Assembly (NCBI GenBank): GCA_938091745.1 | Contig: CALLJK010000014.1 | Coordinates: 16,331-80,330, forward strand | DNA length: 64,000 nt | Source: Candidatus Bipolaricaulota bacterium | GTDB lineage: Bacteria; Bipolaricaulota; Bipolaricaulia; RBG-16-55-9; DRXL01 | Direction: 5' to 3' | Shown here: one piece after another, positions 9,308-59,108 of the stretch | How positions within the stretch are numbered: the stretch's first letter is position 1 | How the letters are laid out: each line of letters opens with the position of its first letter | Program-made: the position numbers and the translations under genes | The notes under the pieces: model-generated | Databases searched by the model: none | The model's input: only the letters and a program-made list of their open reading frames with translations | Told to the model about the DNA's origin: nothing

Positions 9308-10864
9308 ATGATGCTTCGGGCGATCTTAGCTCTGCTTGCGGCTCTCTTGGCGTTGCTCAGTATGCCCGGCTATCTCTTTGGCGGGCTGATCTTTATCGCG
9401 CTCGTGCCGCTCTTCTTTGCTCTTGAGAAGAGCGTGCCACGTCAGGGGTTCTGGCTAGGATATTTGTGCGGGTTTGTGTTCTTTGCTCTGCTCTTATATT
9501 GGATCTACACGCTCTGGGACTGGGCTGGGGGGTTCACCGTCTTTGGCCATCTGATGCTGGCAGGGGTGTTGGCGTTGTGGTGGGGGCTGTGGGGCACAAG
9601 TGTTTGTCTCATGCAAAGGCGATTCCCTCACGCCCTAACGATTCCTGCTGTTTGGGTCTTCTTGGAATATTTGCGCTCACTGACGAAGTTCGGGTTTACG
9701 TGGGGTTTTTTGAGCGATGCCCTCTCTCAGTATCCCTCGCTGATTCAGATTGCTTCGCTGACAGGGACGTGGGGGATTTCGTTGCTCATCGTTCTTGTGA
9801 ATCTTCTTCTCTATCGCGCGCTGCGCCAGCGGCGTCTCTTCTATGGGGTATTCGCTATTGGGCTGATTGCGCTCGATTGGGGCTGGGGAGTCTATCAGCT
9901 GAGTCTCTCTCAGCCGCGGGGAGCGCCGGTGCGTATAGCCGTGGTGCACTCGAACGTCCTGCAGCGCGCCCGCAGCGATCCAGAACAGCTCTCATATATT
10001 CAGAATCTCTATCTCTCTCAGCTAGAGCACCTGCGCGCTGAAGAAGTTGATCTCGTGATTCTGCCGGAGTCGATTGTGCCGGCATATGTGCTCCGGCAGC
10101 CAGACCTTCTTCAGCCCTATCAAGAGCACGCGCAGCGCCTTGGTGCCGCGCTCATCGTAGGGACGATTGACTATCGCGACGGCAAGCTCTTCAATACAGC
10201 GGCTCTCATCGCGCCAGATGGGGAGATCGCTGATCTCTATGACAAAGTTCAGCTTGTGCCCTTCAGCACCGAGTATTTTCCGTTGATCGGGCTGCTGCGC
10301 CGTATAGAGAATCTGATCGGACCGTTACCGCTGGGGGCGCTCACGCCGGGGGAAAGGTTCCATCCTTTGGCCCTCACCCCTGACCCCTCTCCCGTGGCTC
10401 ACCCACGGGAGAGGGGTGGCATCAACCGGGGTGAGGGCCTTCGCCTCGCTACCCCGATCTGCTTCGAGTCGATCTTCTCTCACATCAGTCGAGCATTTGT
10501 CAGACATGGCGCCCAAGCCATAGCGATCATTACCAACGACGCCTGGTTCAAGGGCTCCAAAGCTCTCGAGCAACATTTTGCTAAAGCCGTCTTTCGCGCT
10601 GTCGAGACCGGACGCTACACCGCGCAAGCGTCCAACGGCGGTATTTCCGGGGTGATTGATCCCTACGGGAGAATTCTTACAGCAACGCGCTCTGAAAGAG
10701 AGCAGATCCTGCAGGAGACGATCTTCCTGCAGGATCACGCGACGCTCTACGTGCAGCTCGGAGATTGGGTCGTCTATCTGTCAGGGTTAGTTTTAGCGGG
10801 CATCATATTCGTTCCTGTGCTTGTGAGCTTCGTCACCGCGCCCGTCAAGAGAGAGACTTTATAG
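9308..10864 (+). CDS. lnt: Apolipoprotein N-acyltransferase (carries an in-frame palindromic-repeat insertion)
   Basis: 518 aa. N-terminal polytopic membrane domain plus C-terminal CN-hydrolase domain (RIAVVHSNV..., ...PICFESIF with catalytic Cys). Sits directly downstream of lgt/ccdA. Confidence 0.8.
   Translation: MMLRAILALLAALLALLSMPGYLFGGLIFIALVPLFFALEKSVPRQGFWLGYLCGFVFFALLLYWIYTLWDWAGGFTVFGHLMLAGVLALWWGLWGTSVCLMQRRFPHALTIPAVWVFLEYLRSLTKFGFTWGFLSDALSQYPSLIQIASLTGTWGISLLIVLVNLLLYRALRQRRLFYGVFAIGLIALDWGWGVYQLSLSQPRGAPVRIAVVHSNVLQRARSDPEQLSYIQNLYLSQLEHLRAEEVDLVILPESIVPAYVLRQPDLLQPYQEHAQRLGAALIVGTIDYRDGKLFNTAALIAPDGEIADLYDKVQLVPFSTEYFPLIGLLRRIENLIGPLPLGALTPGERFHPLALTPDPSPVAHPRERGGINRGEGLRLATPICFESIFSHISRAFVRHGAQAIAIITNDAWFKGSKALEQHFAKAVFRAVETGRYTAQASNGGISGVIDPYGRILTATRSEREQILQETIFLQDHATLYVQLGDWVVYLSGLVLAGIIFVPVLVSFVTAPVKRETL
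10369..10439. repeat. GC-rich nested palindromic repeat element copy A, inserted in-frame within lnt
   Basis: Outer inverted repeat GGCCCTCACCCC...GGGGTGAGGGCC encloses inner inverted repeat CCCCTCTCCCGT...ACGGGAGAGGGG. Same family as the copies at 19002-19114 and 54555-54602. Confidence 0.8.
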
Positions 10865-13279: not shown

Positions 13280-13965
13280 AGCGCTTTATCACGATCGCAG
13301 CTCTGGTCTTCGGGCTAGTGGTGGGGGTCGTCATCGCTCAGCCGACTCCGGAGGACGTTTATAAATGCTTTGCGGAGCTGGGTGTCTCTGATCTGCAAGC
13401 GTTGCAGACGGCATTCGCTAAAGGCTTTGCTGATAAGCGCATTACTCCCGAGGTAGCGCTCCGACTCTGCCAGCGCCTAAAGCAGACTGCTGCACCGATC
13501 TCGCTGCGTGAAGGAGTTTTGCAAATCATTGGGCGCGCGCTCGTCGAAGAGCTGCCCGTCACAATGCTCGTCGACAAGGCCTTTGAGGGCTTGACGAAGG
13601 GTGTCCCGCTTGACGTCATCAACGACGACTTATTGGAGCGCAAGATGACCCTTGGTGAAGTGAAGACACTCCTCGCGAGCAAGGGCATCACCATCGGCTT
13701 GACGATTCGGTTTGGGACGATAACGCTGCAGCTCTCCCAAGACGCCGTGGACACAGCGATCACCGAAGCAGCAGGGGCGTTAGAAGACTACGTGCGTGGT
13801 GGGGGCAAGCTCGACGACGCCAATGCCATCAAGTCTGCGGTGCAATTGCGTCTGTCGCGTAACCCCCTGATCCCACAAACCCTGACAAGCTATATCGACC
13901 AGGTCGTCAGTGCTCCAGAGTGGGCGCAGATCGCCCAGAATATCGCGAAACGTTTGAAGAAGTAG
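13276..13965 (+). CDS. Hypothetical secreted protein
   Basis: 229 aa. N-terminal signal peptide (MKRFITIAALVFGLVVGVVIAQP). No recognisable catalytic motifs. Co-directional and tightly spaced with the flanking genes. Confidence 0.4.
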   Translation: MKRFITIAALVFGLVVGVVIAQPTPEDVYKCFAELGVSDLQALQTAFAKGFADKRITPEVALRLCQRLKQTAAPISLREGVLQIIGRALVEELPVTMLVDKAFEGLTKGVPLDVINDDLLERKMTLGEVKTLLASKGITIGLTIRFGTITLQLSQDAVDTAITEAAGALEDYVRGGGKLDDANAIKSAVQLRLSRNPLIPQTLTSYIDQVVSAPEWAQIAQNIAKRLKK

Positions 13966-13976
13966 AAAGGAGCTCT

Positions 13977-14798
13977 ATGCTCAGAGTGCTCATGGTTGTC
14001 CCGTGGTTGCTCTTTGTGGCTCTCTCGCTAATTCAGTGGGAAGAGCCAGGAATCCCGATCATGGCCGACCAGATTCTTTTGGCGGGTAAATTCTATCGTG
14101 TCGCGATTACTAGCATCGAAAGCGATCTCGCGAGGATCATCGAGCTAACAAAGCAGGCGGGCTTTTCTGTGCGGATTGCCCAAGGAACGACTGTAACGTA
14201 TTTTCTTGGGACGCAGCCGTGCCTCGACTGCACCCCGGAGAACGAGCGCGAGAAGCTCGTTTTCCCTCATCTCTTTGTCGATGGGGATCTTCTGTGGCTG
14301 CGCGCTGAGGGGATGCTCTCACAGTATAACGTGCGTCCGGCGCAGACCGACAGCTACGAATTGATTGTTGTCCCTAAGACGACCGTGAGCGCGTCGGCCA
14401 TTCTCGATGAGATTGGACAGAGATTAGCCAAGCTTGCGATTGTTTCTAATCCAGTGCTCCCTCTGGCGGTAGAAGAGCTGACCGTCGTGCCTGGGGTCAA
14501 GCCACCTAAGCCTCCCGAGGGCGTTCACTTAGATTCGGTGCTCTATGCGTTGATGCTCATGCCCGATTGGTACGAGTTTGCCCCGCAGAACAAATTAGAG
14601 CTCTGGGGCTTACGAGTACGAGTGATCGTCGAGTTAGTCTCTCCTGAAGCGCAGCTCGCCCCAACTCATAATATTATTGTAGAAGCGCGTTCGCCCTCAG
14701 GGCTGATGCGGGTGCTCGTGCCGATCCATCAGTTAGTGAGATTAGCGAGCGATCCTGCAGTGAAACTCGTCCGGCCCCCGTACCAGCCGGGGCTGTAA
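13977..14798 (+). CDS. Hypothetical secreted protein, possibly with protease-propeptide (I9)-like repeats
   Basis: ATG at 13977 preceded by AGGAG. Hydrophobic N-terminus (MLRVLMVVPWLLFVALSL). Internal segments (YELIVVPKTT...LAVEELTVVPGV) weakly resemble subtilisin propeptide folds. Confidence 0.4.
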   Translation: MLRVLMVVPWLLFVALSLIQWEEPGIPIMADQILLAGKFYRVAITSIESDLARIIELTKQAGFSVRIAQGTTVTYFLGTQPCLDCTPENEREKLVFPHLFVDGDLLWLRAEGMLSQYNVRPAQTDSYELIVVPKTTVSASAILDEIGQRLAKLAIVSNPVLPLAVEELTVVPGVKPPKPPEGVHLDSVLYALMLMPDWYEFAPQNKLELWGLRVRVIVELVSPEAQLAPTHNIIVEARSPSGLMRVLVPIHQLVRLASDPAVKLVRPPYQPGL

Positions 14799-14813: not shown

Positions 14814-17800
14814 ATGCGAAGACATCAATATCTCTTTTGGGTTCTCTGTGGAATAGTCTTAGTGTTGCTCGGCGCGGTGGGGCTGACTCAGGAGCCCTCG
14901 GATCCCAAGAGCGTTGCCCGGTTGGAGCACGATCCGAAGATTGACAGCGTGCTCGAGCAGATCTTTAAGCTCGCAGAGCAAGGGCAAGCCCAAGCAGCGG
15001 CCCAGGCGGCCTCGCAGTTTCGCGTCCCCGTCTCGGGCAACACGGCTATTGTGATCTTTCAAGTTCCTGAGAGCGTCAGCCGTGACCCTGCTGCTCAGGA
15101 TCTGCTGAAAAAACAAGTCGCGCTCGGAGGAGGACAAGTCATCGCCACATCGAAATATGCCTGGAAGGTCCAGGTCCCTATGAACTTAGGGCGGTTGCGT
15201 GCTTCTTTGGCAGCAGCTGGCAGCGTAGTCCAGTTCGTACGACCTCCGCTCGTCCCCCAAACTCTCGTGGTCAGCGAAGGGGTGGCCCTCACAGGGGCAT
15301 CGAATTATCACTCGATGGGCTTTCGCGGGCAGGGCGTCAAGATCGCCGTGATCGATCTGGGCTTTGCTGGGTTATCTGCTGCCCAGAGTCGTGGCGAACT
15401 CCCCGGTGGCATCCAGACGTTTGACTACACGGGTACGGGAATTGAGTCTGGAACGAATCACGGCACGGCTGTCGCGGAGATCATCTACGACATGGCTCCG
15501 CAAGCCCAGCTAATCTTGATGAAAGTCGGCGACGAAGTCGACTTAGAGAACGCCAAAGAAGAAGCGATTCGTCAGGGCGCGAAGATCATCAATCACTCTG
15601 TAGGTTGGTTCAACACGAACTTCTATGACGGCACGGGAATAGTGAATAATATCGTCGCGGACGCACGCAGCCGCGGAGTGCTCTGGGTCAACGCGGCAGG
15701 CAACTACGCGCGTCGCCACTGGCAAGGGACGTTCCGCGATACAAACTTCAACAAATGGCACGAGTTCTCCGGCGGCGACGAGTCTCTTTCTATCACCGTG
15801 AACGCTGGGGATCAGATCGGGGTCTTCCTCACGTGGAACGACTGGCCCCAATCAGCAAACGATTATGATCTGTATCTGTTCAACAATAACGGGACCCAAG
15901 TTGCAGCATCGCAACGCATTCAGTCGGGCACCGAACCCCCCATTGAGAGTCTCTTCTATCAGTCATTCATCCCGGGGACATTTCATATCCAGATCAAGGC
16001 TGACGGCAACCCCGCCCCGCGGACCTTCTCGCTCTTCAGCCTCAATCACGATCTCGAATACGCTGTCCCGTCCAATAGTATTATTGCTCCAGGGGACTCG
16101 CCCAATGCTCTAACCGTCGGCGCAGTGAACCGTCAAAACTGGACGACCGGCCCCATCGCTCCCTATAGCTCTCAAGGGCCAACGAATGCTGGGCTATCAA
16201 AGCCCGACATCGTCGGTCCGGATCGCGTCTCGACGTTCACGTACACGGAATTCCCTGGCACGTCCGCGGCAGCGCCGCACGTCGCCGGAGCTGCGGCGCT
16301 CCTGCTCTCCGAAAACCCAAATCTGACTGCAGGTCAGCTTGAAGCCCGCTTGAAGAGCGATGCAATCCCCATGGGGTCACCGTTGCAGTTTGGCTCTGGG
16401 CGGCTCAATCTCGCACAATCCAGCCCGCCTCCGGGCCAGCCCGATCTCACCGTGAGCGGCCTGACGTCTAGCCCATCTAATCCCCGCGTTGGGGATTTCG
16501 TCACCGTGAGCGGGATCGTGAGCAACATTGGGAATGCTGCTGCCGGGCCGTTCGTGATCGAGATTCGCGATAGTGGCGGCACCGACCGACGCACCGTTGC
16601 GGGCCTCAATGCCGGAGGCTCAACGAGCTTTTCGTTCACGCGTCGAGTCAATCAAACCACTGAGACGTTTGTCGTCGTCGCGGACGCGACGAACCAGGTG
16701 AGCGAATCGAACGAGACCAATAACTCTGCTGAGCTGCGCGTGACCGCGACGCAGCCCACGCTCAAGCCCGACTTGGCTATCGCCAGCACAGACTGGTCGC
16801 CGCGCACGCTCACCGTTGGGCAGAACGTCACGCTCTCTATCGTTGTGCGTAACCAAGGGCAAGCGAACGCCGGGCCGTTCATAGTAGAGATTCGCGACAG
16901 CGCTGGGACGGATCGTCAGACTCTGCCAGGCCTTGCCGTCGGCAGCACCGCCCCAGTCAGCTTCACCCGCAGAGTCAACAATACGACCGAGTTCTTCACG
17001 ATCACTGTCGATGCGACCAATCAAGTAGACGAACTCGACGAGACGAATAACTCCGTGCAGATTCGTGTAGATGCTCAGCCACAGGCGCCGCGCAAGCCCG
17101 ATCTTACGATTTCTGGAGTTGATTGGACACCGCGGGTGCCACGCCTGGGAGAGAACGTGAACTTCACAGTTGTCGTGCGCAACCAGGGCGACGGCAATGC
17201 TGGGCCGTTCCTCGTCGAGATCCGCGATAGCGCTGGCCAAGACCGACGAGCAGTCTCAGGGCTGAGTGCAGCAAGCTCTGTCTCGCTCTCGTTCACCCGA
17301 AGGCAGAATAACGCGACGGAGATCTTCACTATTACTGTTGACATCACCAATCAAGTAGACGAGTCGAACGAGACCAATAATTCGACGCAAGTGCGCATTG
17401 AAGCGCTAGCCGAGACGCGCTTGCCCGATCTGACTATAGACTCGCTCGATTACTCCCCACGCGACCCGTCAGTAGGCAGTACGCTCACGCTCACAGCTCT
17501 CGTGCGTAATATCGGGAACGCCGACGCTGGCCCGTTTGTCGTCGAATTGCAAGACAGCGTCGGAACGACCCGACAGACGCTTGCTGGGCTGCGTGCCGGG
17601 GCTTCGGTGCGAGTAGACTTCTCAAGGCGGCTCAACAGCTCTTCGGAGACGTTCACCGTCACGGCTGACGCCCTGCGCCAAGTCGCAGAGTCCAACGAGA
17701 CCAACAATAGTCGTCAGATCACGGTGCGAGCCTCGACGCCCAGCCAACTCTCGATCTCTATAAGCACCGACAAGACGAGCTATCGCATCGGAGAGAGATT

Positions 17801-18989
17801 GCAGATCTTCTTGCGCATCGGAGCGCAAGCGTATGTCTATGTCTTTGATATTGACCCAGCGGGTCGCGTGTCACAGGTCTTCCCCAACTCGTTCTCGCGC
17901 CAGAATCTCTTGAACGCTGGGACGTACACGCTGCCCGACGGGCCATATACTCTTGCGATCAGCGGCCCTGAGGGCACTGAGTATCTGCACGCTGTCGCGA
18001 TCACACAGTCTGTGAATCTGGGGCTTGATGGGCTGCGTAATACAGCGTGGCTCAATCCCGAAACGTTCAAAGCTGAGCTAGCTCGGCGCATTCAAAGCGT
18101 CGCGCCATCGGCGACGTGGACGAGCGCCTTCACGAGCTTTCAGGTCGGCACAACTGCGCCCCCGCAAAATCGCGCTCCAACAGCGTGCTTCAGCTTCAGC
18201 CCAACAAATCCCCTTGTCAATCAGCCAGTCACATTCGACGCGTCGTGCTCGACCGACCCTGATGGGCGCATTGTGCGATATGACTGGGATTTCGACAGCG
18301 ATGGACGTGTCGATGCCCAGGGCGTGCGCGTGGCGTTCGCGTTCTCCCAAGCGCGAACATACACGGTACTGCTGAGAGTGACAGACGACCAAGGGCTGAC
18401 TGGCTCTCTCACTAAGAACGTCACGGTACAGGCAACAATCACGCCGCCCACGCCGACGCCACGTCCGTACATCCCCCTTGGCGCTGGAGGACTCTTCATC
18501 ATGGGGACAGACAAGCTCTATCTGATGGTCCAAGGGGCGACGGGCTGGAACAGCGACAGACCCTATCAAATCTCGCTCGCTGTGAACGGGACGATTGACG
18601 GCGTCGGGGTGCAGACGGAAGGCGCTGCGATGGCTCAGCCCGTCCCACAGATCACTGGGCAGGTCACACAAATCACACTGAACGGCTCTGTGCGGAGCAA
18701 CGGGCGCATCACTTACACAATTCAGTTGAGTGACACCGTCTCGGCTGCCCGGATCGAGCTGTTGCTCGACGTCAATGGCGACGGCACCCCTGAGCGAACT
18801 CAGACCAACGCGATCTTCATCTTCATTACAGGCCTTGGGCGTGTTCCCGGGTTCTATCTGCCATTCAGCAATCCGTTCATTATTAAGAACGCGAGAAACG
18901 AGTTCCTCCTGCCCTTTGAGGAGTGGACGCGGTTGTGCGTGCCTGCGCAACCCACAGGCTTTGAGACCTCGAGTTGTTGGCCAGGATGA
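14814..18989 (+). CDS. Secreted subtilisin-like serine protease (S8) with 4 tandem CARDB domains, a DUF4384-like domain and a PKD domain
   Basis: Signal/TM at N-terminus. S8 catalytic triad contexts: Asp AVIDLGF, His NHGTAVAEI, Ser GTSAAAPHVAGAAALL. Four ~108-aa repeats of (K/Q/L)PDL...NETNNS.... PKD motif ...FDASCSTDPDGRIVRYDWDFDSDG.... Confidence 0.85.
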   Translation: MRRHQYLFWVLCGIVLVLLGAVGLTQEPSDPKSVARLEHDPKIDSVLEQIFKLAEQGQAQAAAQAASQFRVPVSGNTAIVIFQVPESVSRDPAAQDLLKKQVALGGGQVIATSKYAWKVQVPMNLGRLRASLAAAGSVVQFVRPPLVPQTLVVSEGVALTGASNYHSMGFRGQGVKIAVIDLGFAGLSAAQSRGELPGGIQTFDYTGTGIESGTNHGTAVAEIIYDMAPQAQLILMKVGDEVDLENAKEEAIRQGAKIINHSVGWFNTNFYDGTGIVNNIVADARSRGVLWVNAAGNYARRHWQGTFRDTNFNKWHEFSGGDESLSITVNAGDQIGVFLTWNDWPQSANDYDLYLFNNNGTQVAASQRIQSGTEPPIESLFYQSFIPGTFHIQIKADGNPAPRTFSLFSLNHDLEYAVPSNSIIAPGDSPNALTVGAVNRQNWTTGPIAPYSSQGPTNAGLSKPDIVGPDRVSTFTYTEFPGTSAAAPHVAGAAALLLSENPNLTAGQLEARLKSDAIPMGSPLQFGSGRLNLAQSSPPPGQPDLTVSGLTSSPSNPRVGDFVTVSGIVSNIGNAAAGPFVIEIRDSGGTDRRTVAGLNAGGSTSFSFTRRVNQTTETFVVVADATNQVSESNETNNSAELRVTATQPTLKPDLAIASTDWSPRTLTVGQNVTLSIVVRNQGQANAGPFIVEIRDSAGTDRQTLPGLAVGSTAPVSFTRRVNNTTEFFTITVDATNQVDELDETNNSVQIRVDAQPQAPRKPDLTISGVDWTPRVPRLGENVNFTVVVRNQGDGNAGPFLVEIRDSAGQDRRAVSGLSAASSVSLSFTRRQNNATEIFTITVDITNQVDESNETNNSTQVRIEALAETRLPDLTIDSLDYSPRDPSVGSTLTLTALVRNIGNADAGPFVVELQDSVGTTRQTLAGLRAGASVRVDFSRRLNSSSETFTVTADALRQVAESNETNNSRQITVRASTPSQLSISISTDKTSYRIGERLQIFLRIGAQAYVYVFDIDPAGRVSQVFPNSFSRQNLLNAGTYTLPDGPYTLAISGPEGTEYLHAVAITQSVNLGLDGLRNTAWLNPETFKAELARRIQSVAPSATWTSAFTSFQVGTTAPPQNRAPTACFSFSPTNPLVNQPVTFDASCSTDPDGRIVRYDWDFDSDGRVDAQGVRVAFAFSQARTYTVLLRVTDDQGLTGSLTKNVTVQATITPPTPTPRPYIPLGAGGLFIMGTDKLYLMVQGATGWNSDRPYQISLAVNGTIDGVGVQTEGAAMAQPVPQITGQVTQITLNGSVRSNGRITYTIQLSDTVSAARIELLLDVNGDGTPERTQTNAIFIFITGLGRVPGFYLPFSNPFIIKNARNEFLLPFEEWTRLCVPAQPTGFETSSCWPG
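16437..17730 (+). repeat. Four tandem ~320-bp coding repeats (CARDB domains) within the S8 protease gene
   Basis: Repeat units begin at about 16437, 16758, 17079 and 17409. They are conserved at protein level (PDLT..., AGPF.VEIRDS.G..R, NETNNS) with partial DNA identity. Confidence 0.7.
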
Positions 18990-19001
18990 GAGAATGAGTG
19001 A

Positions 19002-19114
19002 GGCCCTCACCCCCGACCCCTCTTACCCTCACCCCTTCGAGTCCCCTCTCCCCTCCGAGGGAGAGGGGAAGGGGTGAGGGGGGCAAGAGGGGTGGCGCAG
19101 CCGGGGTGAGGGCC
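19002..19114. repeat. GC-rich nested palindromic repeat element copy B (intergenic between convergent S8 protease and ligA; probable bidirectional terminator)
   Basis: GGCCCTCACCCCC...GGGGTGAGGGCC outer inverted repeat with inner CCCCTCTCCCCTCCGAGGGAGAGGGG hairpin and a second nested ACCCTCACCCC/GGGGTGAGGGGG pair. Ends 3 nt from the ligA stop. Confidence 0.8.
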
Positions 19115-19116
19115 TT

Positions 19117-21295
<2,179 letters not shown>

Positions 21296-21388: not shown

Positions 21389-22879
21389 ATGGTGAAGTGG
21401 TTCCTCATCGTCATGCTGTCGGTTCTAGTAATGGTTGCGAATGCAAGCGTACAGGAGCAACCCGCGTGCACGATAACAGTGCAGCCAGGTCAGTCCATCC
21501 AAGAAGCGATTGACGGGGCATCTGAAGGTGCGGTCATCTGCGTGAGCGCGGCTAACTTCCCATATATGGAACATCTGACGATCACCAAGAGCCTGACGCT
21601 GCGCGGCGCGGGCAGAGAGAAGACGTTCCTGACGGGCAAGGAGGAAAACAAGCCGGTCGTTTACATCAATAGCAATGAGGAGATCATGGTCGTCCTAGAA
21701 GAGCTTACTATAGCAGTTACCCTTCCCATTGGCTTCCATATTGAAGGGAAGGCAAGAGCGAATCTTCGCATACTCGATATCCGCGGGCGCGGTGCTTATT
21801 ACAATATTGCTGCGGGCGGCTCAACCCATCTGAGCCTCGAAAACTCTCGGGTTTACAATGGAGGGATAGGCCTCCTTGCTACAGGCTCCGCTCAAGTAAT
21901 CATCACGAACTCTCAACTCTTCAATAACGGTAATGGTATCTATGCCGGGAGAGAAGCTCAAGTGAGTCTTATGAACTCCTCTGTCTTTGATAACCGAGCT
22001 AACGGCTTGGATTTGCGAGACTCTGCTACTGTAGAGCTCAAAGAGGCTCGAGTTATAGACAACAAGCACTGTGGGGTTGCAGTCTGGTCAGAACAAGCTC
22101 AGGTGCAGGGTAAAGCCCAAGAGCTACGAGGCAACGGAGCTGACTTATGCGGGTATGCCCCTGCCTCGCTGCGTAAGCCTCTCGTTCCACAAACCCCCAA
22201 AGTCCAGCTTACTGTTCCCAGGGATTATGCGAGCTTACAAGAAGCTATAGACGCGATTGCTCCCAGCGGCACGATCATCATAGCTGCGGGTACTTACGAA
22301 GCAGGGCTGACAATCTGGAAACCTCTCACACTGCAGGGAGCCGGTCGAGAACAAACGATCTTGAAGGCTAGTCTTGATCGAGGGTTAGTGGGTTCAATCA
22401 CAGCTCAGGGCTACGGGGTTCACTTGGAAGGACTGACACTTGCTGGCGGCATATATGAGGGGCTACTCGTCTATGGCCGAGGGAGCTTCATCAACGTTCA
22501 GATCATGAACAATGGCTTTTATGGTCTTCTCGCGGGCGGCTCAGCTATAGTTGAAGTGGAAGATGGTTTCATTCTCAACAATGGAATGGACCTTGAGTGC
22601 TCTCATTCAGAAGAATTGTGCAATGGGGTTGGGCTCTGGGATCAGGCCCAGATCACGTTGAGCAATTCTATGATCAAAGAGAATGGAGACTGGGGTATAG
22701 GTGCCGCACTCAAGCAATGTGGTTATCCTCGAGATGCTTTCACTGGGAGCGTGATCTTTGAAGGCACCAATATCATCGAGGGCAACAACCGCTGGGGCAA
22801 TCAGAAGGGCCTGGGCAATCCGGGAAATCACCCTTGGAATAATCCCAGCGTACCCGATGGGCAAGTCTGCTTGCCATAA
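21389..22879 (+). CDS. Secreted right-handed parallel beta-helix repeat protein (internally duplicated)
   Basis: Signal peptide present. Two copies of a TVQPGQSIQEAIDGA...LTLRGAGREKTFL / TVPRDYASLQEAIDAI...LTLQGAGREQTIL module are each followed by NxxG beta-helix repeats (NNGNGIYAG, DNRANGLDL...). Confidence 0.6.
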   Translation: MVKWFLIVMLSVLVMVANASVQEQPACTITVQPGQSIQEAIDGASEGAVICVSAANFPYMEHLTITKSLTLRGAGREKTFLTGKEENKPVVYINSNEEIMVVLEELTIAVTLPIGFHIEGKARANLRILDIRGRGAYYNIAAGGSTHLSLENSRVYNGGIGLLATGSAQVIITNSQLFNNGNGIYAGREAQVSLMNSSVFDNRANGLDLRDSATVELKEARVIDNKHCGVAVWSEQAQVQGKAQELRGNGADLCGYAPASLRKPLVPQTPKVQLTVPRDYASLQEAIDAIAPSGTIIIAAGTYEAGLTIWKPLTLQGAGREQTILKASLDRGLVGSITAQGYGVHLEGLTLAGGIYEGLLVYGRGSFINVQIMNNGFYGLLAGGSAIVEVEDGFILNNGMDLECSHSEELCNGVGLWDQAQITLSNSMIKENGDWGIGAALKQCGYPRDAFTGSVIFEGTNIIEGNNRWGNQKGLGNPGNHPWNNPSVPDGQVCLP

Positions 22880-43596: not shown

Positions 43597-45006
43597 TCAG
43601 ATTCGTTCGGCTTTGATTTCTAAGATCCGGTGCGTCCGAGGCGTCACACGATACGATTCGTTGACGGCCTGGCCGACGATCCATATTACTGTATTCTCAT
43701 CACAAATCAAGGGGATGGCATCGCGGGCCTCGCGGGGGATTTTTCTATCAACGAAAAAGTCTTGTAATTTCTTTGTGCCCTCCTTCAGGGAGATGCAATC
43801 CCCAGGACGGCGATTGCGCACGACTAAGCTGCCGCAAATCTTGTCAGCGTCGAGGAGGACCAAAGACCTAACCCCCAACCCCTTCCCTGAAAGGGAAGGG
43901 GCTCTCCCCTCCCCGTGCCGGGGAGGGGCCGGGGGAGAGGTCAGCTTCATCTGCAATCTCCAGCCGATCTCTGGGATGACCGTCTCGCCGGGCACAGTGA
44001 GTAAATACTCAAAGCGCTTTGGGGCCGGAGCCGGACGCGTCGTGATAATCAATTGAGCATGGCGGCGCAGCACCCTCACGCCGGCGGGCAGATGGAGTTC
44101 GCCCGTGCCGTGACGGGCAACCCACCCTAAGACAGCTTCGATGTGATCAGCTTCCAGCTCGCCCTGGAGCGCATAGACAGCTTGACGCAGCACGAGCGCC
44201 TGCAGATACTCAGAGAGTTTCAAGAACTTCTTCAAATCAAGCGCAAGCTCGTATGCCTTTTGCTCGCAGAGAAGCTCTTTTAACGCTTGGTCGGCTTCAC
44301 GCTCCAGATGCTGGGCAGCCTGGCCGAACAGTCGCGCCGTCCGCCCTAATGATTGAAGCAGATTTGGGTTGTACTCTTTCAAAATGGGGATCAGCTCGTG
44401 GCGGATCTTATTGCGCACGATCTTGGTGTCATAATTCGTTGGGTCTTCACGCCAACGGAGTTTGTGAACTTTGGCATAGGCTTCGATCTGCTCGCGGGTG
44501 CACTCGATCAATGGGCGAATATACTGACAGTGCTCACTAGAGCGTACTGGGGGAATCCCAGCAAGCCCTTCGAGCCCAGAGCCGCGCACGAGTCTCATCA
44601 GGAGCGTTTCAGCTTGATCGTTGAGCGTGTGCCCCAATGCGATTTTATTGAATTTATGAGCGTGAGCTGTCTTCTCGAGAAACTGATAGCGCAGCTGCCG
44701 TGCCGCGACTTCGAGCGAGAGCTTGTTCGCTTTGGCATAGGCGGGCACGTCAGCACGCTCTGTGTAAAACTGCAGTTTCAGCGAAGAAGCGAGCTTTTTG
44801 ACAAACTCAGCATCTTGAGCTGACTCTGGGCGAATGCCGTGATCGAAGTGCGCTACAGCGAGCGTGAGCTTCAGCTCTCTTTTGAGTTCTTTGAGCACAT
44901 GGAGCAAGACGACCGAGTCCACGCCGCCGGAGACGGCCACGAGCACGCGATCTCTGTTTTCGAGCATGGCGTAGCGCGAGATAGTCTTGCGGACTTGGTT
45001 GAGCAT
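43597..45006 (-). CDS. tilS: tRNA(Ile)-lysidine synthetase (carries an in-frame palindromic-repeat insertion near the C-terminal domain)
   Basis: PP-loop VLVAVSGGVDSVVLLHVL. C-terminal TilS domain (VVRNRRPGDCISLKEGTKKLQDFFVDRKIP). Confidence 0.8.
   Translation of the reverse strand: MLNQVRKTISRYAMLENRDRVLVAVSGGVDSVVLLHVLKELKRELKLTLAVAHFDHGIRPESAQDAEFVKKLASSLKLQFYTERADVPAYAKANKLSLEVAARQLRYQFLEKTAHAHKFNKIALGHTLNDQAETLLMRLVRGSGLEGLAGIPPVRSSEHCQYIRPLIECTREQIEAYAKVHKLRWREDPTNYDTKIVRNKIRHELIPILKEYNPNLLQSLGRTARLFGQAAQHLEREADQALKELLCEQKAYELALDLKKFLKLSEYLQALVLRQAVYALQGELEADHIEAVLGWVARHGTGELHLPAGVRVLRRHAQLIITTRPAPAPKRFEYLLTVPGETVIPEIGWRLQMKLTSPPAPPRHGEGRAPSLSGKGLGVRSLVLLDADKICGSLVVRNRRPGDCISLKEGTKKLQDFFVDRKIPREARDAIPLICDENTVIWIVGQAVNESYRVTPRTHRILEIKAERI
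43871..43940. repeat. GC-rich nested palindromic repeat element copy D (variant subfamily), in-frame within tilS
   Basis: CCCCTTCCCTGAAAGGGAAGGGG hairpin followed by CTCTCCCCTCCCCGTGCCGGGGAGGGGCCGGGGGAGAG nested palindrome. Encodes SPPAPPRHGEGRAPSLSGKGLGV on the tilS strand. Confidence 0.7.
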
Positions 45007-47840: not shown

Positions 47841-50018
47841 TCACTCTCTTTTAGGCTTTATATGTGCCAGGCGCAGCGCGTTGCCCGTCACGGCCAGCGA
47901 CGCGCCCATGTCGCCCACAAGCACAGCTAATACTAACGTCACATAGCCGGGGAAGACCCCTAAACCCAGACTGAGCTTGGTCAAGATCGAGAAGAAGATA
48001 TTTTGTTGAATAACGCGCCGCGCCCGACGGCTCAGCTCAATGAGATAGGGCAGCTTGCTCAAATCGTCGCTCATGAGCGCGACGTGCGCCGTCTCCAGAG
48101 CTGCGTCTGTGCCGATCGCGCCCATGGCGATCCCGACAGTAGAAGCTGCTAAGGCCGGGGCGTCGTTGACCCCGTCGCCGACCATTGCGACTTTGCCGTA
48201 TTGCCGTAAGAGCTTCTGAATCTCTGAGACCTTCCCGTCAGGCAGCACCCCAGCATGATAGTGCGCGATGCCCAACTGGTGCGCGACAGCTTGAGCTGTG
48301 CCCTCATTGTCACCCGTGATCATCACGACTTCCAGACCTAATTCTCGCAGGCGCTGGATCGTCGTGGGCGCTTCGGGGCGGATTTTGTCAGCTATGGCGA
48401 TCAGTCCCATAAGTTTTTCTGCTAGGCCCACGCCGACAACTGTCTTGGCTTGAGATTCTAAGCGTACAGCTTCGCTGTGGGAAGAGTTGGGGAAGAGCTG
48501 GAGCTTGCCGACACGATACTCTCTCCCATCAAGGTGGGCCTGCACACCCTGACCCGTCAGAGAAACGAAATCTTGCGCGTCAGGGAGCGCTTGCACAGGC
48601 GCGCTCTGCTCATAATAGCGCACGATCGCGCGCGCGATGGGGTGCTGGCTCTTGCTCTCTAGAGCTGCCGCGATGCGCACTATCTCTTCGGGTGAGGAGC
48701 CATCGAGCGCGATCACATCGGTGACAGCAAGCTCCCCGGTGGTGAGCGTCCCCGTCTTGTCGAAGACAATAGTTTTGATCTGCCCAAGCTCTTCTACGTA
48801 GGCGCCGCCCTTGATGAGCACGCCGTGGCGAGCAGCACTGGTTATCGCTGAAATGATCGAGACCGGGGTCGAGATGAGCAACGCACACGGGCAAGCGATA
48901 ACTAGCAGCGCGAGCGCGCGGGAGAACCATTCTGCGAACGGGGCACCAAAGAGCAGCGAGGGAATGGTCGCAACACCCAACGCTACAGCTACAACGCTTG
49001 GTGTGTAGTACTTGGCAAAACGGTCAACGAACTTCTCCACAGGCGCTCGCTGCGCTTCGGCTTCTTCGACCAAGTGAATGATCTTAGCGAGCGTCGTGTC
49101 TTTGGCACGTTTGGTGACTCGAATCTCTAGATAGCCCTCGTGGTTGATCGTGCCGGCAGAGACCGCATCGCCCGGCTGCTTCTCGACGGGCACCGACTCG
49201 CCAGTGATCGGCGCTTGATTGACCGAAGAACTGCCCGACAGCACGAGGCCGTCGAGGGCGATGCGCTCGCCGGGCTTCACCACAAGAGTCTCGCCAAGCT
49301 CGATCTGATCGAGAGGGAGCAGAAGCTCTTGGCCGTTGCGGCGCACGCGGGCTTCGCTGGGGGCGAGCTTCATCAGCTCGCGCAATGAGCGTCGTGCGCG
49401 CTCGACGGAAAACTCTTCAAGAAGCTCGGCGAGCGCAAAGAGAAACGCCAGGCTCGCCGCCTCGACGTATTCTCCAATAAGAATGGCCCCGACAATGGCG
49501 AGGCTCATCAGAAAGTTAATGCCCAGCGAGAACGTCTTTAATGCGTGAAGGCCCCGACGCGCAAAATGATATGCCCCGAAGAAGACCGCAGCTAAATACA
49601 GCATCGTCGAGAGCGTCAGTGTGCGCTCCCACAAGACCATCAGCGTCGGATCGAGCTTAAAGACTGAAAGCGCTAAGCCAAGAGCGAGCAGCACCCCAGA
49701 GACCCCCGTGAAGAGTGCTTCGCGGCGTCTCCACAGGGGCTTGGGCGTACTCGCTTCTTCATGGGCGCGGCGCGTCGTGTAACCGATGCGCCCTATATGC
49801 TCGATGAGCTGTGCGCGATCTAGCGTATGAGGGCGATAGCGCACGCGCAGCGTGCTTGTAGAAAAATTCACTTTGGCTTCGGTCACGCCGTGCAGACGAC
49901 TGATGGACTGCTCTAATTCGCTTGCGCAGCCGGCGCAGTGCATCCCTTCGACGCTAAACTCTTCAGTGTTCTCATCCATATGCTGATCACAGTTAAAGAG
50001 CGCATGCCTCAATTTCAA
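47841..50018 (-). CDS. Heavy-metal translocating P1B-type ATPase (Cd/Zn/Pb-type, CadA/ZntA-like)
   Basis: N-terminal HMA (GMHCAGCA), CPC motif in TM6 (ACPCALLISTP), DKTGT phosphorylation site, GDGVNDAP hinge. Confidence 0.85.
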   Translation of the reverse strand: MKLRHALFNCDQHMDENTEEFSVEGMHCAGCASELEQSISRLHGVTEAKVNFSTSTLRVRYRPHTLDRAQLIEHIGRIGYTTRRAHEEASTPKPLWRRREALFTGVSGVLLALGLALSVFKLDPTLMVLWERTLTLSTMLYLAAVFFGAYHFARRGLHALKTFSLGINFLMSLAIVGAILIGEYVEAASLAFLFALAELLEEFSVERARRSLRELMKLAPSEARVRRNGQELLLPLDQIELGETLVVKPGERIALDGLVLSGSSSVNQAPITGESVPVEKQPGDAVSAGTINHEGYLEIRVTKRAKDTTLAKIIHLVEEAEAQRAPVEKFVDRFAKYYTPSVVAVALGVATIPSLLFGAPFAEWFSRALALLVIACPCALLISTPVSIISAITSAARHGVLIKGGAYVEELGQIKTIVFDKTGTLTTGELAVTDVIALDGSSPEEIVRIAAALESKSQHPIARAIVRYYEQSAPVQALPDAQDFVSLTGQGVQAHLDGREYRVGKLQLFPNSSHSEAVRLESQAKTVVGVGLAEKLMGLIAIADKIRPEAPTTIQRLRELGLEVVMITGDNEGTAQAVAHQLGIAHYHAGVLPDGKVSEIQKLLRQYGKVAMVGDGVNDAPALAASTVGIAMGAIGTDAALETAHVALMSDDLSKLPYLIELSRRARRVIQQNIFFSILTKLSLGLGVFPGYVTLVLAVLVGDMGASLAVTGNALRLAHIKPKRE

Positions 50019-54530: not shown

Positions 54531-54554
54531 AGTGATCTCCTTGTATTATGCTCG

Positions 54555-54602
54555 CCCCTCTCCCGTAGATTGCCTACGGGAGAGGGGCACGGGGTGAGGG
54601 CC
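54555..54602. repeat. GC-rich palindromic repeat element copy C (truncated; intergenic inside an operon)
   Basis: CCCCTCTCCCGTAG-ATTGC-CTACGGGAGAGGGG hairpin followed by CACGGGGTGAGGGCC. Shares its inner and right-outer modules with copies A and B; the left outer arm is absent. Confidence 0.75.
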
Positions 54603-54604
54603 TC

Positions 54605-55639: not shown

Positions 55640-55972
55640 TCAAAAATTCTTCAGATACTTAAAAACTTCCATCAGCTCGTCGATCTTCTCCTCGCCCTTG
55701 CCTGATTGAATCGCTTCGGTAAGACAGGTCTGCATATGCCCTTTAGTCAGCATTTGCGCGATCTGGGAGAGCGACGCCTGCACCGCTGCGATCTGTTTTA
55801 AGATCTCGACGCAATACTCTTCGTTTTCGATCATCGTCTCGATGCCCTCGACGTGGCCGCGCACCGTGCGGATGCGCCGCAACAGATCGCGCTTCATCTG
55901 CGGCAGATGCTGGAGCCCGCCGCGCTTGTGAGTCTCTGCATGTGTTGGCATAGCTTGCACTCCTCTCTTCAA
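55640..55972 (-). CDS. csoR: CsoR/RcnR-family metal-sensing transcriptional repressor
   Basis: [36 protein letters not shown] carries the W-X-Y-Z Cys/His signature of CsoR. The ATG overlaps the copA stop (ATGA). The true start may be an internal ATG. Confidence 0.75.
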
Positions 55973-58458
55973 ACAGCTATGAGCGGCGCACGGAATCTCC
56001 GCAGGCGCAGCGCATTTGAGACAACGCTCACGCTCGAAAGCCCCATCGCCCCAGCAGCCAGGATCGGGTTGAGCAGCCCCAACGCTGCTACGGGGATGAG
56101 CACCGTGTTATAGATAAACGCCCAGAAGAGATTCTGCCAAATGTTTCTCACCGTCGCGCGGCTGAGGGCGATCGCCGTCACGACCCCGCGCAGATCCCCG
56201 CCGACTAAAGTAATGTCTGAAGCTTCCATCGCGACGTCGGTGCCCGTGCCAATAGCAATCCCGACATTAGCCTGCGCGAGAGCGGGCGCATCGTTGATCC
56301 CGTCGCCGACCATCGCCACGCGCTTCCCTTGGGCTTGCAGCTTTCTCACTATGTCGGCTTTTTCATGGGGCAAGATCTCAGCGAAGACCTGCTCGATCCC
56401 GACTTGCCGAGCGATCGCTTCGGCAGTCTTTTTGTTATCCCCCGTGATCATCACGACTTCTAACCCTAAAGCCTTCAGGGCAGCGACGGCTTCACGCGCA
56501 CCCTCTTTCACAGTATCAGCGATAGCAAGCACGCCAAGTGCTTTGCCGTCTTGGGCGACGAAGACCGGCGTCTTGCCCTGGGCGGAGAAACGCTCAGCGT
56601 GCTCGAGCAGCCCGTCGAGCGCGACTTTTTCGTCGCGCATCAGTTTTAAATTGCCTACGAGCACCCGATGGCCGTTGAGGCTCGCGCGGATACCGTGTCC
56701 GGGGACAGCAGCAAACTCGCGGGCTTCTGCGAGCGCGAGATTCTTCTCATGCGCATACTTCACGATCGCTTCGCCCAAAGGGTGCTCAGACCCTCTCTCG
56801 ACAGAGGCCGCCAGCTGCACGAGCTGCTCTTCAGAGACTCCTGATAGGGTCACTATGTCTGTGATTTCGGGGCGGCCCTTGGTCAGCGTGCCTGTCTTAT
56901 CTAAGACAATGGTCGTGAGCTTATGCGCCGTCTCGAGGGCATCCCCACCCCGAATTAAGATGCCGTGCTCGGCGCCCTTGCCCGTGCCGACCATGATGCT
57001 CGTGGGCGTCGCTAGCCCCAGCGCGCACGGGCACGCGACTATCAAGACCGCGACAAAGTTCAGAAGAGCTTTGGTCAGTGCTGGCTGCGGCCCAAAGAAG
57101 TACCAGCCCACAAACGTCACAATCGCGATGAGAATCACAGCGGGGACGAAGTAGCTCGCGATCACATCAACGAGCTTAGCAATGGGAGGCTTGGTGCTCT
57201 GAGCCTCTTCGACAAGCTTGATGATCTGTGCGAGAGCTGTTTCGCTCCCGACTTTTGTTGCTCGGAACGCGAACGAGCCGGTCTTGTTGATCGTTGCGCC
57301 GATGACTTCATCACCAGGACGCTTTTCGACGGGGAGCGACTCCCCTGTGATCATGGACTCATCGACTGCTGAAACGCCCTCGATGACGATGCCGTCCACG
57401 GGGATCTTCTCGCCAGGACGAACTACAACAATATCGCCGACTTGGACGTCTTCGATGGGGATGTCTCGCTCTTGTCCATCGCGGATGACGCGAGCGGTCT
57501 TGGCTTGTAAGCCGATGAGTTTCTTGATCGCTTCAGAGGTGCGCCCCTTGGCGCGGGCTTCGAGCAATCGTCCCAAGAGAATCAGCGTGATGATCGCGGC
57601 TGACGTGTCAAAATACAAGTCCATGTGCCCGTGCGTGCTGAAGAGCGGCAACAGCGCGCTGTACCCGTAAGCTGCCGTCGTGCCCACGGCAATAAGCGTG
57701 TTCATATCTGTCGTCTTGTTGCGCAGAGCGGCCCATGTGCCGCGATAGAACTGCCAGCCTGCCCAAAACTGCACCGGCGTCGCCAAGAGCAACTGTAAGA
57801 GATAATTGAGCTGATCGGGGATGGGCAGCTTCAGCCCCAGCATCCCTGGGTACATCAAGAGAAAGATCGCTATCGTGAGCGCCGCAGAGACGATGAGCTT
57901 GCGGCGCAGCTGTGCTTCGTAATCTTCGTGATGCTGTGCGTGCGCGTCGGGCTTCTCTTCGGGAACGTCATAGCCAATGCGGCGCACGGCCTCTTTCAGT
58001 TTCTCAACTGTGACTTGGTTTGCCGCGACGCGCACGGTCGCTTTTTCAGCGGCAAGATTGACGCTGGCGTCCAAAACACCGGGGACGCTCCTGAGGGCCT
58101 TTTCGACTTTGGCGACGCAGCTGGCACAGCTCATGCCTGAGATGGGGAGGGTGAGGAGACCTACCCCTCTGGCCCCCTCCCCTCCCTCTTTAGGGGAGGG
58201 GCTGGGGGAGAGGTTCTTACGCAAGCGTCGCTCGTCTTCTTGCGCGTCTTCGCTGAGTTCCTCGGCCTCGTAGCCAGCATCTGTGACAGCTTGCGTTAAG
58301 CTCGCTATTGAGACGCCCTCGCTGTGCTCAACTTCAGCACGGCCGCGCTCCAGCGAGACGTTTACTCTGTGAACGCCCGCGACGCCTTGCAAAGCTTGCG
58401 TCACAGACTTGACGCAGTGCTGGCAGCTCATCCCTTTGACTTTTAGGATCGTCTTCAT
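55969..58458 (-). CDS. copA: Copper-translocating P1B-type ATPase with two N-terminal HMA domains (carries an in-frame palindromic-repeat insertion between the HMA domains)
   Basis: Two GMSC(Q/A)(H/S)C HMA motifs, CPC ([11 protein letters not shown]), [13 protein letters not shown]. Start likely the internal ATG ([15 protein letters not shown]); the track ORF extends to 58506. Confidence 0.85.
58147..58213. repeat. GC-rich nested palindromic repeat element copy E (variant subfamily), in-frame in the copA inter-HMA linker
   Basis: CCTCTGGCCCCCTCCCCTCCCT-CTTT-AGGGGAGGGGCTGGGGGAGAGG imperfect palindrome. Encodes [22 protein letters not shown] on the copA strand. Confidence 0.7.
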
Positions 58459-58541: not shown

Positions 58542-58814
58542 TCATGCTGCTTGAGCTTCTCGGAGCTTCTCTTTAACCCACAGCCGTAGCAGCGTAGTGT
58601 ACCCTAGCCCGCGTGCCCGAGCGATCTGCTTCACACACTTGAGGTCGGCCTCGCTGAGCTTAATAGAGACAGGCTTGCGCCGTTGCTTGCGCACAGTCAC
58701 TTCCACCTCTTCTGTCTCATCCCAGTAATCCGCTGAGCTGTGAGTCTTCCAAAACTCGTGGATCTGTTGGGCTGTCCACTGGCTCATGTCAGGAAGCCTT
58801 TTCCGCTTGCTCAT
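58542..58814 (-). CDS. brnA: BrnA-like antitoxin (CopG/DUF4415 family)
   Basis: C-terminal ...VSIKLSEADLKCVKQIARARGLGYTTLLRLWVKEKL matches the BrnA/DUF4415 ribbon-helix-helix tail. Lies 19 nt downstream of brnT. Confidence 0.6.
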   Translation of the reverse strand: MSKRKRLPDMSQWTAQQIHEFWKTHSSADYWDETEEVEVTVRKQRRKPVSIKLSEADLKCVKQIARARGLGYTTLLRLWVKEKLREAQAA

Positions 58815-58832
58815 AGGCGACCTCCTTAATTC

Positions 58833-59108
58833 TCAGTGCATCCGCGCGCGATACAACCGTCGCTCCTTCTTGTCCATATCCCGCGCTGTAACGATATAGC
58901 CCTTGCCACGTCCCAGATAAATCATCACGACGAAGATATAGCGCCCGGCAACACTTTGCCCATAGACGTGATACAAGTTCTCCCCAGGGCCTCGGCGAAA
59001 GTAGGGCTTATCTTCGAAAAAGAGTTCTTCAACCTCTGTCGGGGTGACATGATGCTCTGCAATATGCTCCCGATTCTCCCGCGTCCAAACCAACGATTCG
59101 ATATGCAC
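58833..59108 (-). CDS. brnT: BrnT-like toxin (DUF497 family ribonuclease)
   Basis: 91 aa. ...WTRENREHIAEHHVTPTEVEELFFED...YHVYGQSVAGRYIFVVMIYLGRGKGYIVTARDMDKKERRLY follows the DUF497/BrnT pattern. Confidence 0.6.
   Translation of the reverse strand: MHIESLVWTRENREHIAEHHVTPTEVEELFFEDKPYFRRGPGENLYHVYGQSVAGRYIFVVMIYLGRGKGYIVTARDMDKKERRLYRARMH

Follow-up and report, generated by a model that had tools for sequence, protein, structure and literature searches.

The CopA linker and its repeat

The stretch of DNA analysed here (the window, 64,000 nucleotides of a Candidatus Bipolaricaulota (Acetothermia) genome) carries copA, the gene of a Cu+-exporting P1B-type ATPase, together with a csoR-type copper repressor whose start overlaps the copA stop (Table 1). 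Between the two HMA domains of CopA sits a copy of a small palindromic repeat, which we call family 1, in a stop-free orientation and frame. The copy is a derived feature, since outgroup orthologues and part of the ingroup retain the ancestral linker without an element, and it has later lost one of the two hairpins of the family, hairpin B, in frame.

The copA product is a 100% match to the database protein P0001, and its nearest database relatives are named Candidatus Bipolaricaulota/Acetothermia. Pfam recognizes two HMA domains, an E1-E2_ATPase and a HAD domain in it, which, together with an AlphaFold2 model of residues 1-174, gives the make-up of a CopA-type P1B ATPase (two HMA domains with GMxCxxC, E1-E2, HAD). 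HMA1 is modelled as beta-alpha-beta-beta-alpha-beta with a predicted local distance difference test score (pLDDT) above 85. At residues 73-97 pLDDT is below 50, in a segment flanked by confident ferredoxin-like HMA folds, and between residues 65 and 103 L83 alone reaches 90% conservation in an alignment of 26 CopA orthologues. HMA2 opens in the model with strand beta1, VGLLTLP (residues 99-105), whose first three codons (GTA GGT CTC) are also the last of the element; L104 is nearly invariant and I106 invariant among orthologues, the GMSCASC motif stands at residues 108-114, and the Pfam match, 104-165 in the 830-aa numbering of the query, corresponds to residues 103-164 when M is counted as 1.

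The core of the copy, from ACCT to AGGT, occupies 58159-58214, or 58155-58218 with flanking bases that are often conserved. A profile built from 19 family-1 copies, all in other genomes, matches it at 58176-58216 on the minus strand (nhmmer, E=2.4e-9, envelope 58155-58218), covering model positions 3-43 only, and for its 28-nt core 0 matches are expected by chance. Pfam, alignment, model and profile thus bear out the original prediction of an in-frame repeat between HMA1, which ends at about residue 68, and HMA2, and residues 83-105 read as given there when the coding strand is translated. The bounds first proposed, 58147-58213, were right as to location and about 10 nt off: 58147-58158 lie outside the core and the limits must be shifted, because the L-T-L-P codons (58144-58155) encode the conserved strand beta1 of HMA2 and not the insert. 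The description as palindromic holds for the 8-bp stem of hairpin A, which is intact; the fold as a whole is no stronger than that of dinucleotide shuffles (z=-0.74 as RNA, z=-1.40 as DNA). Fold stability was therefore dropped as proof in favour of the profile and family evidence, and the copy is counted as an element because of its family membership. Two of its three forward frames contain stops.

Comparison with the linker copy of the orthologous locus L002 (P0013), which measures 80 nt against 56 nt in the window, shows how the shorter form arose. What the window copy lacks is the 24 nt of hairpin B, TTCCTCCTTCCCTTTAGGGAAGGG in L002; when this segment, which lies between GGG runs, is removed from the L002 copy, the window sequence is obtained with 25/28 identity in the rest, as read directly from the two sequences. 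The linker copy of L001 (P0005) is also 24 nt shorter than that of L002, via another deletion, and both deletions preserve the frame. The CopA copy is the 5' half plus the 3' tail of an element of ~80 nt with two hairpins, of which hairpin B was lost in a 24-nt in-frame deletion. Its 38-nt module A is identical at 38/38 positions to a Fraserbacteria copy (L107), at 36/38 to intergenic Bipolaricaulota copies and at 35/38 to the CopA copy of L002, whereas nucleotide identity in the flanking copA sequence reaches only 73-75%.

Linker states across CopA orthologues

As the original prediction had proposed, comparison of CopA orthologues shows that the repeat was acquired. Element-free linkers (e.g. 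EDEPRLQRIPLKIGPPLTTATASHLTTEQVTFPI) occur in the distant orthologues P0019-P0027 (63-74% identity) and in the close orthologue P0006 of locus L201 (86%), with the ancestral motif EDEPR.Q.IPLKIG.P...EQ.T(L/F)PI. The counter-evidence named in the original prediction, a homologous linker in a repeat-free genome, was not found: the orthologues that have such a linker (P0005, P0013, P0010) belong to genomes in which the family is present. Other orthologues have filled the site in other ways. Family 1 stands in forward orientation in the window, L001, L002 and L210; in reverse orientation and full length in L199 (P0017; profile E=7e-17 on the opposite strand); and in reverse and partial in L200 (P0004) and L120 (P0012). 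A second family, described below, occupies it in L209 (P0002) and L119 (P0003-like). The forward copies lack the ancestral IPLKI...EQV segment, which keeps the linker within the range seen across orthologues, 37-64 residues between GYEA and GM.CASC. Among forward-type orthologues the linker peptide is not conserved. The elements all abut the same codons, AGGTC followed by N(N)TCACC(C/G)T(G/C)CC. These points had escaped the original prediction, which saw neither that the copy is a half-element, nor that it replaces the ancestral linker, nor that other elements and orientations use the same site, nor that the repeat is spread over many phyla.

A bootstrapped neighbour-joining tree, built on the sequence between the start of HMA2 and the C-terminus, joins P0001 (forward) with P0002 (family 2) as sisters at 97%, and likewise P0003 (family 2) with P0004 (reverse) at 100%, the latter two being 95% identical. 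Monophyly of the forward type receives 0% bootstrap, and the empty-linker P0006 is nested at 100%, by which a single ancient insertion common to all forward-type orthologues is rejected. Judged by this tree, the linker states are strongly discordant with the CopA gene tree, which would point either to repeated colonization or overwriting of the site or to recombination of the copA 5' end between lineages.

Architecture and distribution of family 1

The layout of family 1 (~80 nt) is ACCTCTCCCCNGGCCCCTCCCC..GGGGAGGGG..CCCCCTTCCC..GGGAAGGGGG..GGGGGTTAGGT. Full elements measure 76-86 nt. They open with the head, (G)ACCTCTCCCCNGG, which is followed by hairpin A (CCCCTCCCC-N5-GGGGAGGGG) and, after a short spacer, by hairpin B (CCCCCTTCCC-N5-GGGAAGGGGG); they close with the tail, GGGGGGTTAGGT(C), an imperfect inverse of the head. 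Head, both stems and tail are common to 32 full copies from many phyla. In 21 aligned full copies, a model of three helices (an outer stem and two hairpins) has 96.2% of its cells paired, a level reached in 0/500 shuffles, with slid controls at 77% or less. The outer helix (ACCT/AGGT plus CCCCC/GGGGG) is 99.5% paired, so that terminal inverted repeats are present, and hairpin A is 97.6% paired across the family. Most stem positions are uninformative because they are invariant; the loop-closing pairs do vary (U-A 9, U-G 6 and G-C 5 at one; U-A 12, G-C 3 and C-G 1 at the other), that of hairpin A covarying. RNAalifold also yields an alternative fold, a single long hairpin. Singlets (module A alone) and A+B doublets both occur, the tail of the doublet being the inverse of the head, and related genomes have intergenic copies as well (L001 14543-14628, L002 13530-13613, L066).

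A scan of species-representative genomes with ACCTCTCNCCNNGCCCCTCCCC found at least 116 stretches, with 123 matches listed. Among the matches listed are Chloroflexota (five classes), Armatimonadota, Cyanobacteria (Nostoc, Tolypothrix, Iningainema), Bacteroidota, Fraserbacteria and Bipolaricaulota, as well as Planctomycetota, Nitrospirota, Poribacteria, Thermotogae and Desulfobacteraceae. By these matches, family 1 is present in at least about ten phyla. A search for relatives of CopA in metagenomes found only two close loci, and phages as a vector were discarded, since 2.9 M viral contigs yielded no more than 7 matching stretches. Rfam gave 0 hits at gathering score over the window, with sub-threshold matches of generic hairpins (miRNA precursors) at both family-1 copies, and the literature, searched for the element sequences, for the peptides encoded by them and for repeats in Bipolaricaulota, returned nothing relevant.

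Module A also occurs joined to other partners. In Tannerella metagenome-assembled genomes (L008, L017, L028, L051, L052, L081) it is followed by ...GGAATATGCCGG...TTGAATCTTGAATC, and in Armatimonadota 0707_bin6 (L011, L013, L019, L024, L033, L075, L082) by ...CCGAATCC.TTCA.GGATCGGTT. These lineage-specific second modules imply that module A is a building block shared by different composite repeats.

Other copies in the window and in other genes

The original prediction also counted three in-frame insertions, in copA, lnt and tilS. All three are in frame and palindromic; only the tilS copy belongs to the same family as that of copA, the lnt element being of family 2. The full-length tilS copy takes the place of ~23 residues that in L001 are filled by another palindrome, and in other orthologues this site is either empty (P0275, P0246, P0250) or taken up by one of a wide variety of peptides derived from repeats. 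The L001 palindrome (22300-22400) is built of heptamers, (AGTTCGC)3...(GCGAACT)3, exactly at the site of the window's family-1 copy; peptides like those derived from it, SEIRNPK and SAIRNPQ, are found in Chloroflexota proteins of L025 and L039.

The lnt element adds ~20 residues directly upstream of the strand with the catalytic-Cys ICFE. Most orthologues have there a short GFRPL.LPQG.K(L/I)ATPICFE without an element; some carry other elements, and P0140 has a full reverse family-1 copy. The family-1 profile reaches only E=0.74 in lnt (10367-10440), and two further sites in the window, at ~19000-19100 and 54546-54604, are also weak (Table 1). From their shared architecture, GGCCCTCACCCC..CCCCTCTCCC..GGGAGAGGGG..GGGGTGAGGGCC, the three make up a second, related family. 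The composite at 19000-19125 has an outer pair, GAGGCCCTCACCCC...GGGGTGAGGGCCT, around a second element, CCCTCACCCC..CCCCTCTCCCC..GGGAGAGGGG..GGGGTGAGGG; as the genes on its two sides converge, it might serve as a terminator-like structure in both directions.

Of the 123 listed matches, 36 stand in a reading frame that stays open over 70 codons or more to either side, a crude upper bound for genic copies. The ten genic family-1 cases from various phyla that were checked by Pfam are all real proteins, about five of them with the copy inside a domain. Copies at a domain boundary or linker are those of PurL, UbiD, a CoxS-like protein (two tandem copies), a Nostoc methyltransferase and a DNA polymerase I, here between the 5'-3' and 3'-5' exonuclease domains. 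Copies inside a Pfam domain are found in the core of alanyl-tRNA synthetase, Iso_dh, arginase, Methyltransf_28, CHAT and a second copy of DNA polymerase I. The idea that insertions are tolerated specifically at inter-domain linkers thus fails: the lnt copy lies inside CN_hydrolase, about half of the 14 mapped genic copies (the three window genes included) are intradomain, and about 7/14 lie at a linker or boundary. Genic copies are clearly not exclusive to such places, and the share found there is probably above what uniform placement would give.

Some genic copies deserve separate mention. RefSeq has module A within the annotated coding sequence of pglX on plasmid pNsp_c of Nostoc sp. ATCC 53789. 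In related Bipolaricaulota (L199, 16035-16119), a full family-1 copy is in frame in a DUF1573/HYDIN-like Ig-domain protein (gene 15667-17256). Anaerolineae CoxM/CoxS fusions, which are xanthine-dehydrogenase-type FAD/2Fe-2S proteins, carry in their linkers either a tandem pair of family-1 copies (L074) or half copies in tandem (L057), which means that arrays can accumulate within one linker. In an ABC-ATPase gene, comparison of the 3' end in L001 with that in L201 and the window shows ~38 nt replaced, and not purely inserted. This L001 reading frame (13892-14650, LolD/MacB-type) has an internal TAA, a full family-1 copy stands in place of its last ~12 codons and its stop is the element's TAG; the gene may be a pseudogene, or a sequencing error may be involved.

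Genomic context

Table 1. Position of copA, its domains and the palindromic elements in the window.
Feature	Position	Strand	Evidence
copA, Cu+-exporting P1B-type ATPase, 829 aa (HMA-HMA-E1E2-HAD)	55969..58458	-	Open reading frame, Pfam, orthologue match
HMA domain 1, residues 2-68	58255..58455	-	Pfam HMA (two stretches); AlphaFold2
Inter-HMA linker, residues 69-98	58165..58254	-	Unconserved; low-confidence model
HMA domain 2, residues 99-165	57964..58164	-	Pfam, AlphaFold2, conserved TLPI.GM
Family-1 palindromic element, shortened copy, 56 nt (ACCTCTCCCCCAGCCCCTCCCCTAAAGAGGGAGGGGAGGGGGCCAGAGGGGTAGGT on coding strand)	58159..58214	-	nhmmer, identity to other copies
5' head / terminal inverted repeat ACCTCTCCCCCAG	58202..58214	-	Invariant in 21 aligned copies; pairs with 3' tail
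Hairpin A: CCCCTCCC (58194-58201), loop CTAAAGA (58187-58193), GGGAGGGG (58179-58186)	58179..58201	-	Minimum free energy fold
Deletion junction and 3' tail GGGGGCCAGAGGGGTAGGT	58159..58176	-	Comparison with full L002 CopA-linker copy
csoR-type copper repressor	55640..55972	-	Pfam Trns_repr_metal, E=9.8e-27
Full-length family-1 copy in tilS, in frame (TSPPAPPRHGEGRAPSLSGKGLGVRS)	43863..43943	-	nhmmer E=2.6e-19; between TilS and TilS_C (Pfam)
Family-2 element in lnt, in frame (GGCCCTCACCCC..CCCCTCTCCC..GGGAGAGGGG..GGGGTGAGGGCC)	10369..10443	+	Inside CN_hydrolase (Pfam)
Composite (nested) family-2 element between convergent genes	19000..19125	.	Family-1 profile E=0.008
Family-2 half element in 74-nt spacer of two minus-strand genes	54555..54604	.	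Family-1 profile E=0.36

The surroundings of copA vary among relatives. L199, L200, L209 and L210 have two additional small open reading frames between copA and csoR, absent from the window, L001, L002 and L201; one of them is weakly HMA-like in L209 and is possibly a CopZ-type chaperone. On the other side, between copA and a divergent MFS gene, the window has a BrnT toxin/CopG-type antitoxin pair (58542-59108, minus strand), the same spacer being empty in L001, L200, L201 and L210 and filled by a DUF433/PIN pair in L209. As the pair differs or is absent among relatives, this spacer would be a variable slot for toxin-antitoxin modules.

Two other repeated regions of the window have a simple explanation. 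The DNA repeats D3/D4, of 70-75% identity, are shared with copA because the window encodes another P-type ATPase for heavy metals, which has only one HMA domain (47841-50018, minus strand). The tandem periodicity of 327-330 nt at 16689-17708 corresponds to the CARDB repeats of a 1391-aa S8 subtilase (14814-18989), which has four of them, together with DUF4384 and PKD domains.

Origin of the repeat-derived linker

We consider it likely that the CopA-linker sequence is a decayed copy of the small dispersed palindromic repeat of family 1, a passenger that is translated as linker. In-frame read-through, recurrent occupancy of the same sites and decay by in-frame deletion are all observed. A family-1 copy entered the unconstrained inter-HMA linker of CopA and, because its orientation and frame were stop-free, it is translated as a Pro/Ser/Gly/Glu-rich linker; a 24-nt frame-preserving deletion between GGG runs later removed hairpin B. 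The copy would have no role in copper transport and would persist because at this place nearly every sequence is tolerated, provided that its length is about right. Surviving insertions would be chosen by reading-frame and stop-codon filtering, and the selected unit may be the element's own DNA (or RNA) hairpin. Mobilization is presumed to take place in trans, by a sequence-specific enzyme reading head and hairpin, as REP-associated tyrosine transposases (RAYT) and the Y1 enzymes of IS200/IS605 do for repetitive extragenic palindromic (REP) elements.

Several observations weigh against such a plain scenario. All-versus-all clustering of the open reading frames of 116 element-bearing loci, a weak test, disclosed no recurrent gene or transposase beside the copies; tblastn with an IS200 TnpA query, also a weak test, found no Y1 transposase in the 1.57 Mb of fetched DNA; and the flanks of 32 copies have no consistent target-site duplication, only 2-3 ad hoc cases. 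At copA, tilS and the 3' end of the ABC-ATPase gene, the element replaces ancestral sequence, which plain transposition does not predict. The module is far more constant (35-38/38) than the host gene (73-75%), so that a purely decaying passenger is too simple and frequent re-insertion or gene conversion is required. Forward and reverse copies in CopA share the same junction to within 1 nt, which hints at targeting, in-situ inversion or recombination over random insertion followed by selection. Moreover, the neutrality of the copy for CopA is something that we infer.

Alternatively, although we find it rather unlikely, the elements might spread by templated replacement, that is, by recombination, gene conversion or template switching between the C-run/G-run palindromes, whereby filled sites would be overwritten or flipped. 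The substitution of sequence instead of its addition, the lack of target-site duplications in the flanks of the 32 copies, the identical 3' junction of forward and reverse copies, the conflict of CopA linker states with the gene tree and the equal similarity of the CopA module to its orthologous copy and to non-orthologous ones would all follow from it. The ancestral AAGATCCCTCTAAAG also resembles the element start AAGAACCTCTCCCC, although this microhomology comes from a single case. Templated replacement leaves unexplained, however, the first arrival at an element-free site and the near-identical copies in different phyla, and the flanks of intergenic copies have no shared homology.

It is far less probable, and nothing found here supports it, that the copy has been co-opted by its host, for the length or flexibility of the linker, for ribosome pausing at an mRNA hairpin or G-tract, or for a frameshift giving a free HMA1 chaperone. 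Frameshifting at the same inter-domain position of E. coli copA, as Meydan et al. are said to have found in 2017, reportedly yields such a free HMA1 chaperone, CopA(Z). It is true that total linker length changes rather little as elements come and go (37-64 residues), that GGGAGGGGAGGGGGCCAGAGGGG matches a G-quadruplex motif, that the hairpin loop has a TAA in the -1 frame (CCC TAA), and that the window is without the two small copA-csoR reading frames seen in L199, L200, L209 and L210. Yet L001, L002 and L201 also lack these small genes whatever their linker state, the peptide is unconserved among forward-type orthologues, and orthologues in which the linker is empty or filled by an unrelated element do well. 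A programmed -1 frameshift for a CopZ-like HMA1 was set aside, and kept as a low-probability rival, for want of a canonical slippery heptamer, the candidate site lying within the loop and not 5-9 nt upstream of a structure, and because the stop-bearing loop is generic to the family, TAAAG being found also in intergenic copies. Finally, a native low-complexity linker that converged in composition, or an assembly or binning artefact, is effectively refuted: linkers are often Pro/Ser/Gly-rich and the folding energy is no better than that of shuffles, but the 38/38 identity to copies elsewhere, the E=2.4e-9 against an independent profile, the intact reading frame and the homologous copies in independently assembled orthologues (Logan, JGI, NCBI) speak against both.

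Beyond CopA, families 1 and 2 might together represent an undescribed, horizontally spreading hairpin element of at least ten phyla, with a head and hairpin kept almost invariant, that is actively directed to filled sites or overwrites them through templated replacement or inversion in situ, a possibility that we put forward tentatively. On this view, the inter-HMA linker of CopA, the TilS linker and the loop that precedes the catalytic Cys of Lnt would each be a hypervariable cassette, with a higher rate of exchange than the gene around it.

The repeat in the CopA linker has practical consequences. Pro/Ser/Gly/Glu-rich stretches such as GEGLGERS, GGAGGEV and LSPSPSP in conserved proteins should be annotated as repeat DNA and not as domain features, and masked in alignments, phylogenies and structure prediction. 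CopA, TilS and Lnt exchange the content of a small number of permissive sites and are otherwise 90-95% identical, which provides a natural map of insertion tolerance in proteins. The features that most merit pursuit are this fast, tree-discordant turnover at fixed permissive sites and the near-identity across phyla; a 38-nt module that is identical across phyla without a known mobilizing enzyme is a tractable lead for the biology of mobile DNA.

Comparison with known repeat systems

Two hairpins and the lack of target-site duplications would fit elements derived from IS200/IS605, unlike the terminal inverted repeat of family 1; an IS605 OrfB gene does occur at the end of L002, unlinked to the copies. 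Elhai et al. are said to have described in 2008 the small dispersed repeats of heterocystous cyanobacteria, very small hairpin repeats, nested or mosaic and inside genes, reportedly with units of 21-27 nt. To our knowledge they have been described only in cyanobacteria; like family 1 they are found in Nostoc, in a comparison by description only. Bacterial miniature inverted-repeat transposable elements (Correia, ERIC, Nezha and the Anabaena elements) include intragenic in-frame copies (PMC10969869). Family 1 is, like them, small and non-coding, with terminal inverted repeats and occasional in-frame fusions, and its two inverted hairpin units are arranged as in such elements. It differs from them in having no consistent target-site duplication and in a 38-nt module up to 100% identical across phyla, and no parent insertion sequence with matching ends was seen in the fetched loci.

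The best-documented palindromic repeats that are translated are the Rickettsia palindromic elements (RPE); here such repeats are found in an uncultured candidate phylum, the same element also being present in Chloroflexota, Cyanobacteria, Armatimonadota, Bacteroidota and others. Both RPE and family 1 are dispersed palindromes inserted in frame in unrelated housekeeping genes, where they lengthen the protein by a peptide that its fold can accommodate; both also have intergenic copies and no known transposase. The in-frame translated palindrome that defines RPE is seen in the intact reading frames through copA, tilS, lnt and about ten genes elsewhere. RPE are AT-rich. Family-1 elements, in contrast, measure 56-86 nt, have C-runs and G-runs and occur in roughly ten phyla (a comparison by description only), and a single site may be filled in different genomes by other elements or in the other orientation. 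RPE themselves (Ogata et al. 2000/2002) are of about 100-150 bp and belong to Rickettsia and relatives (PMC10969869).

REP elements and their inverted doublets, the REPINs, are mobilized by RAYT (PMC3116915); REP super-families are defined by a GTAG/CGTC tag, and some REPs lie within open reading frames (PMC3733652). Family 1 shares with them a short imperfect palindrome, a conserved head and the occurrence of singlets and of inverted doublets that fold into larger structures. Unlike REPs, it has the head ACCT(C/A)(T/A)CCCCC and the ends ACCT../..TTAGGT instead of GTAG or CGTC, GTAG being present only in a few variant copies, the CopA copy of the window included (GGGGTAGGT); no RAYT was found in the fetched DNA, and the genic share of copies is unusually large. 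By analogy, the layout of head-hairpin and hairpin-inverse head most resembles that of REPINs, and the CopA element is an addition to the known class of translated palindromic repeats, RPE-like and REPIN-like.

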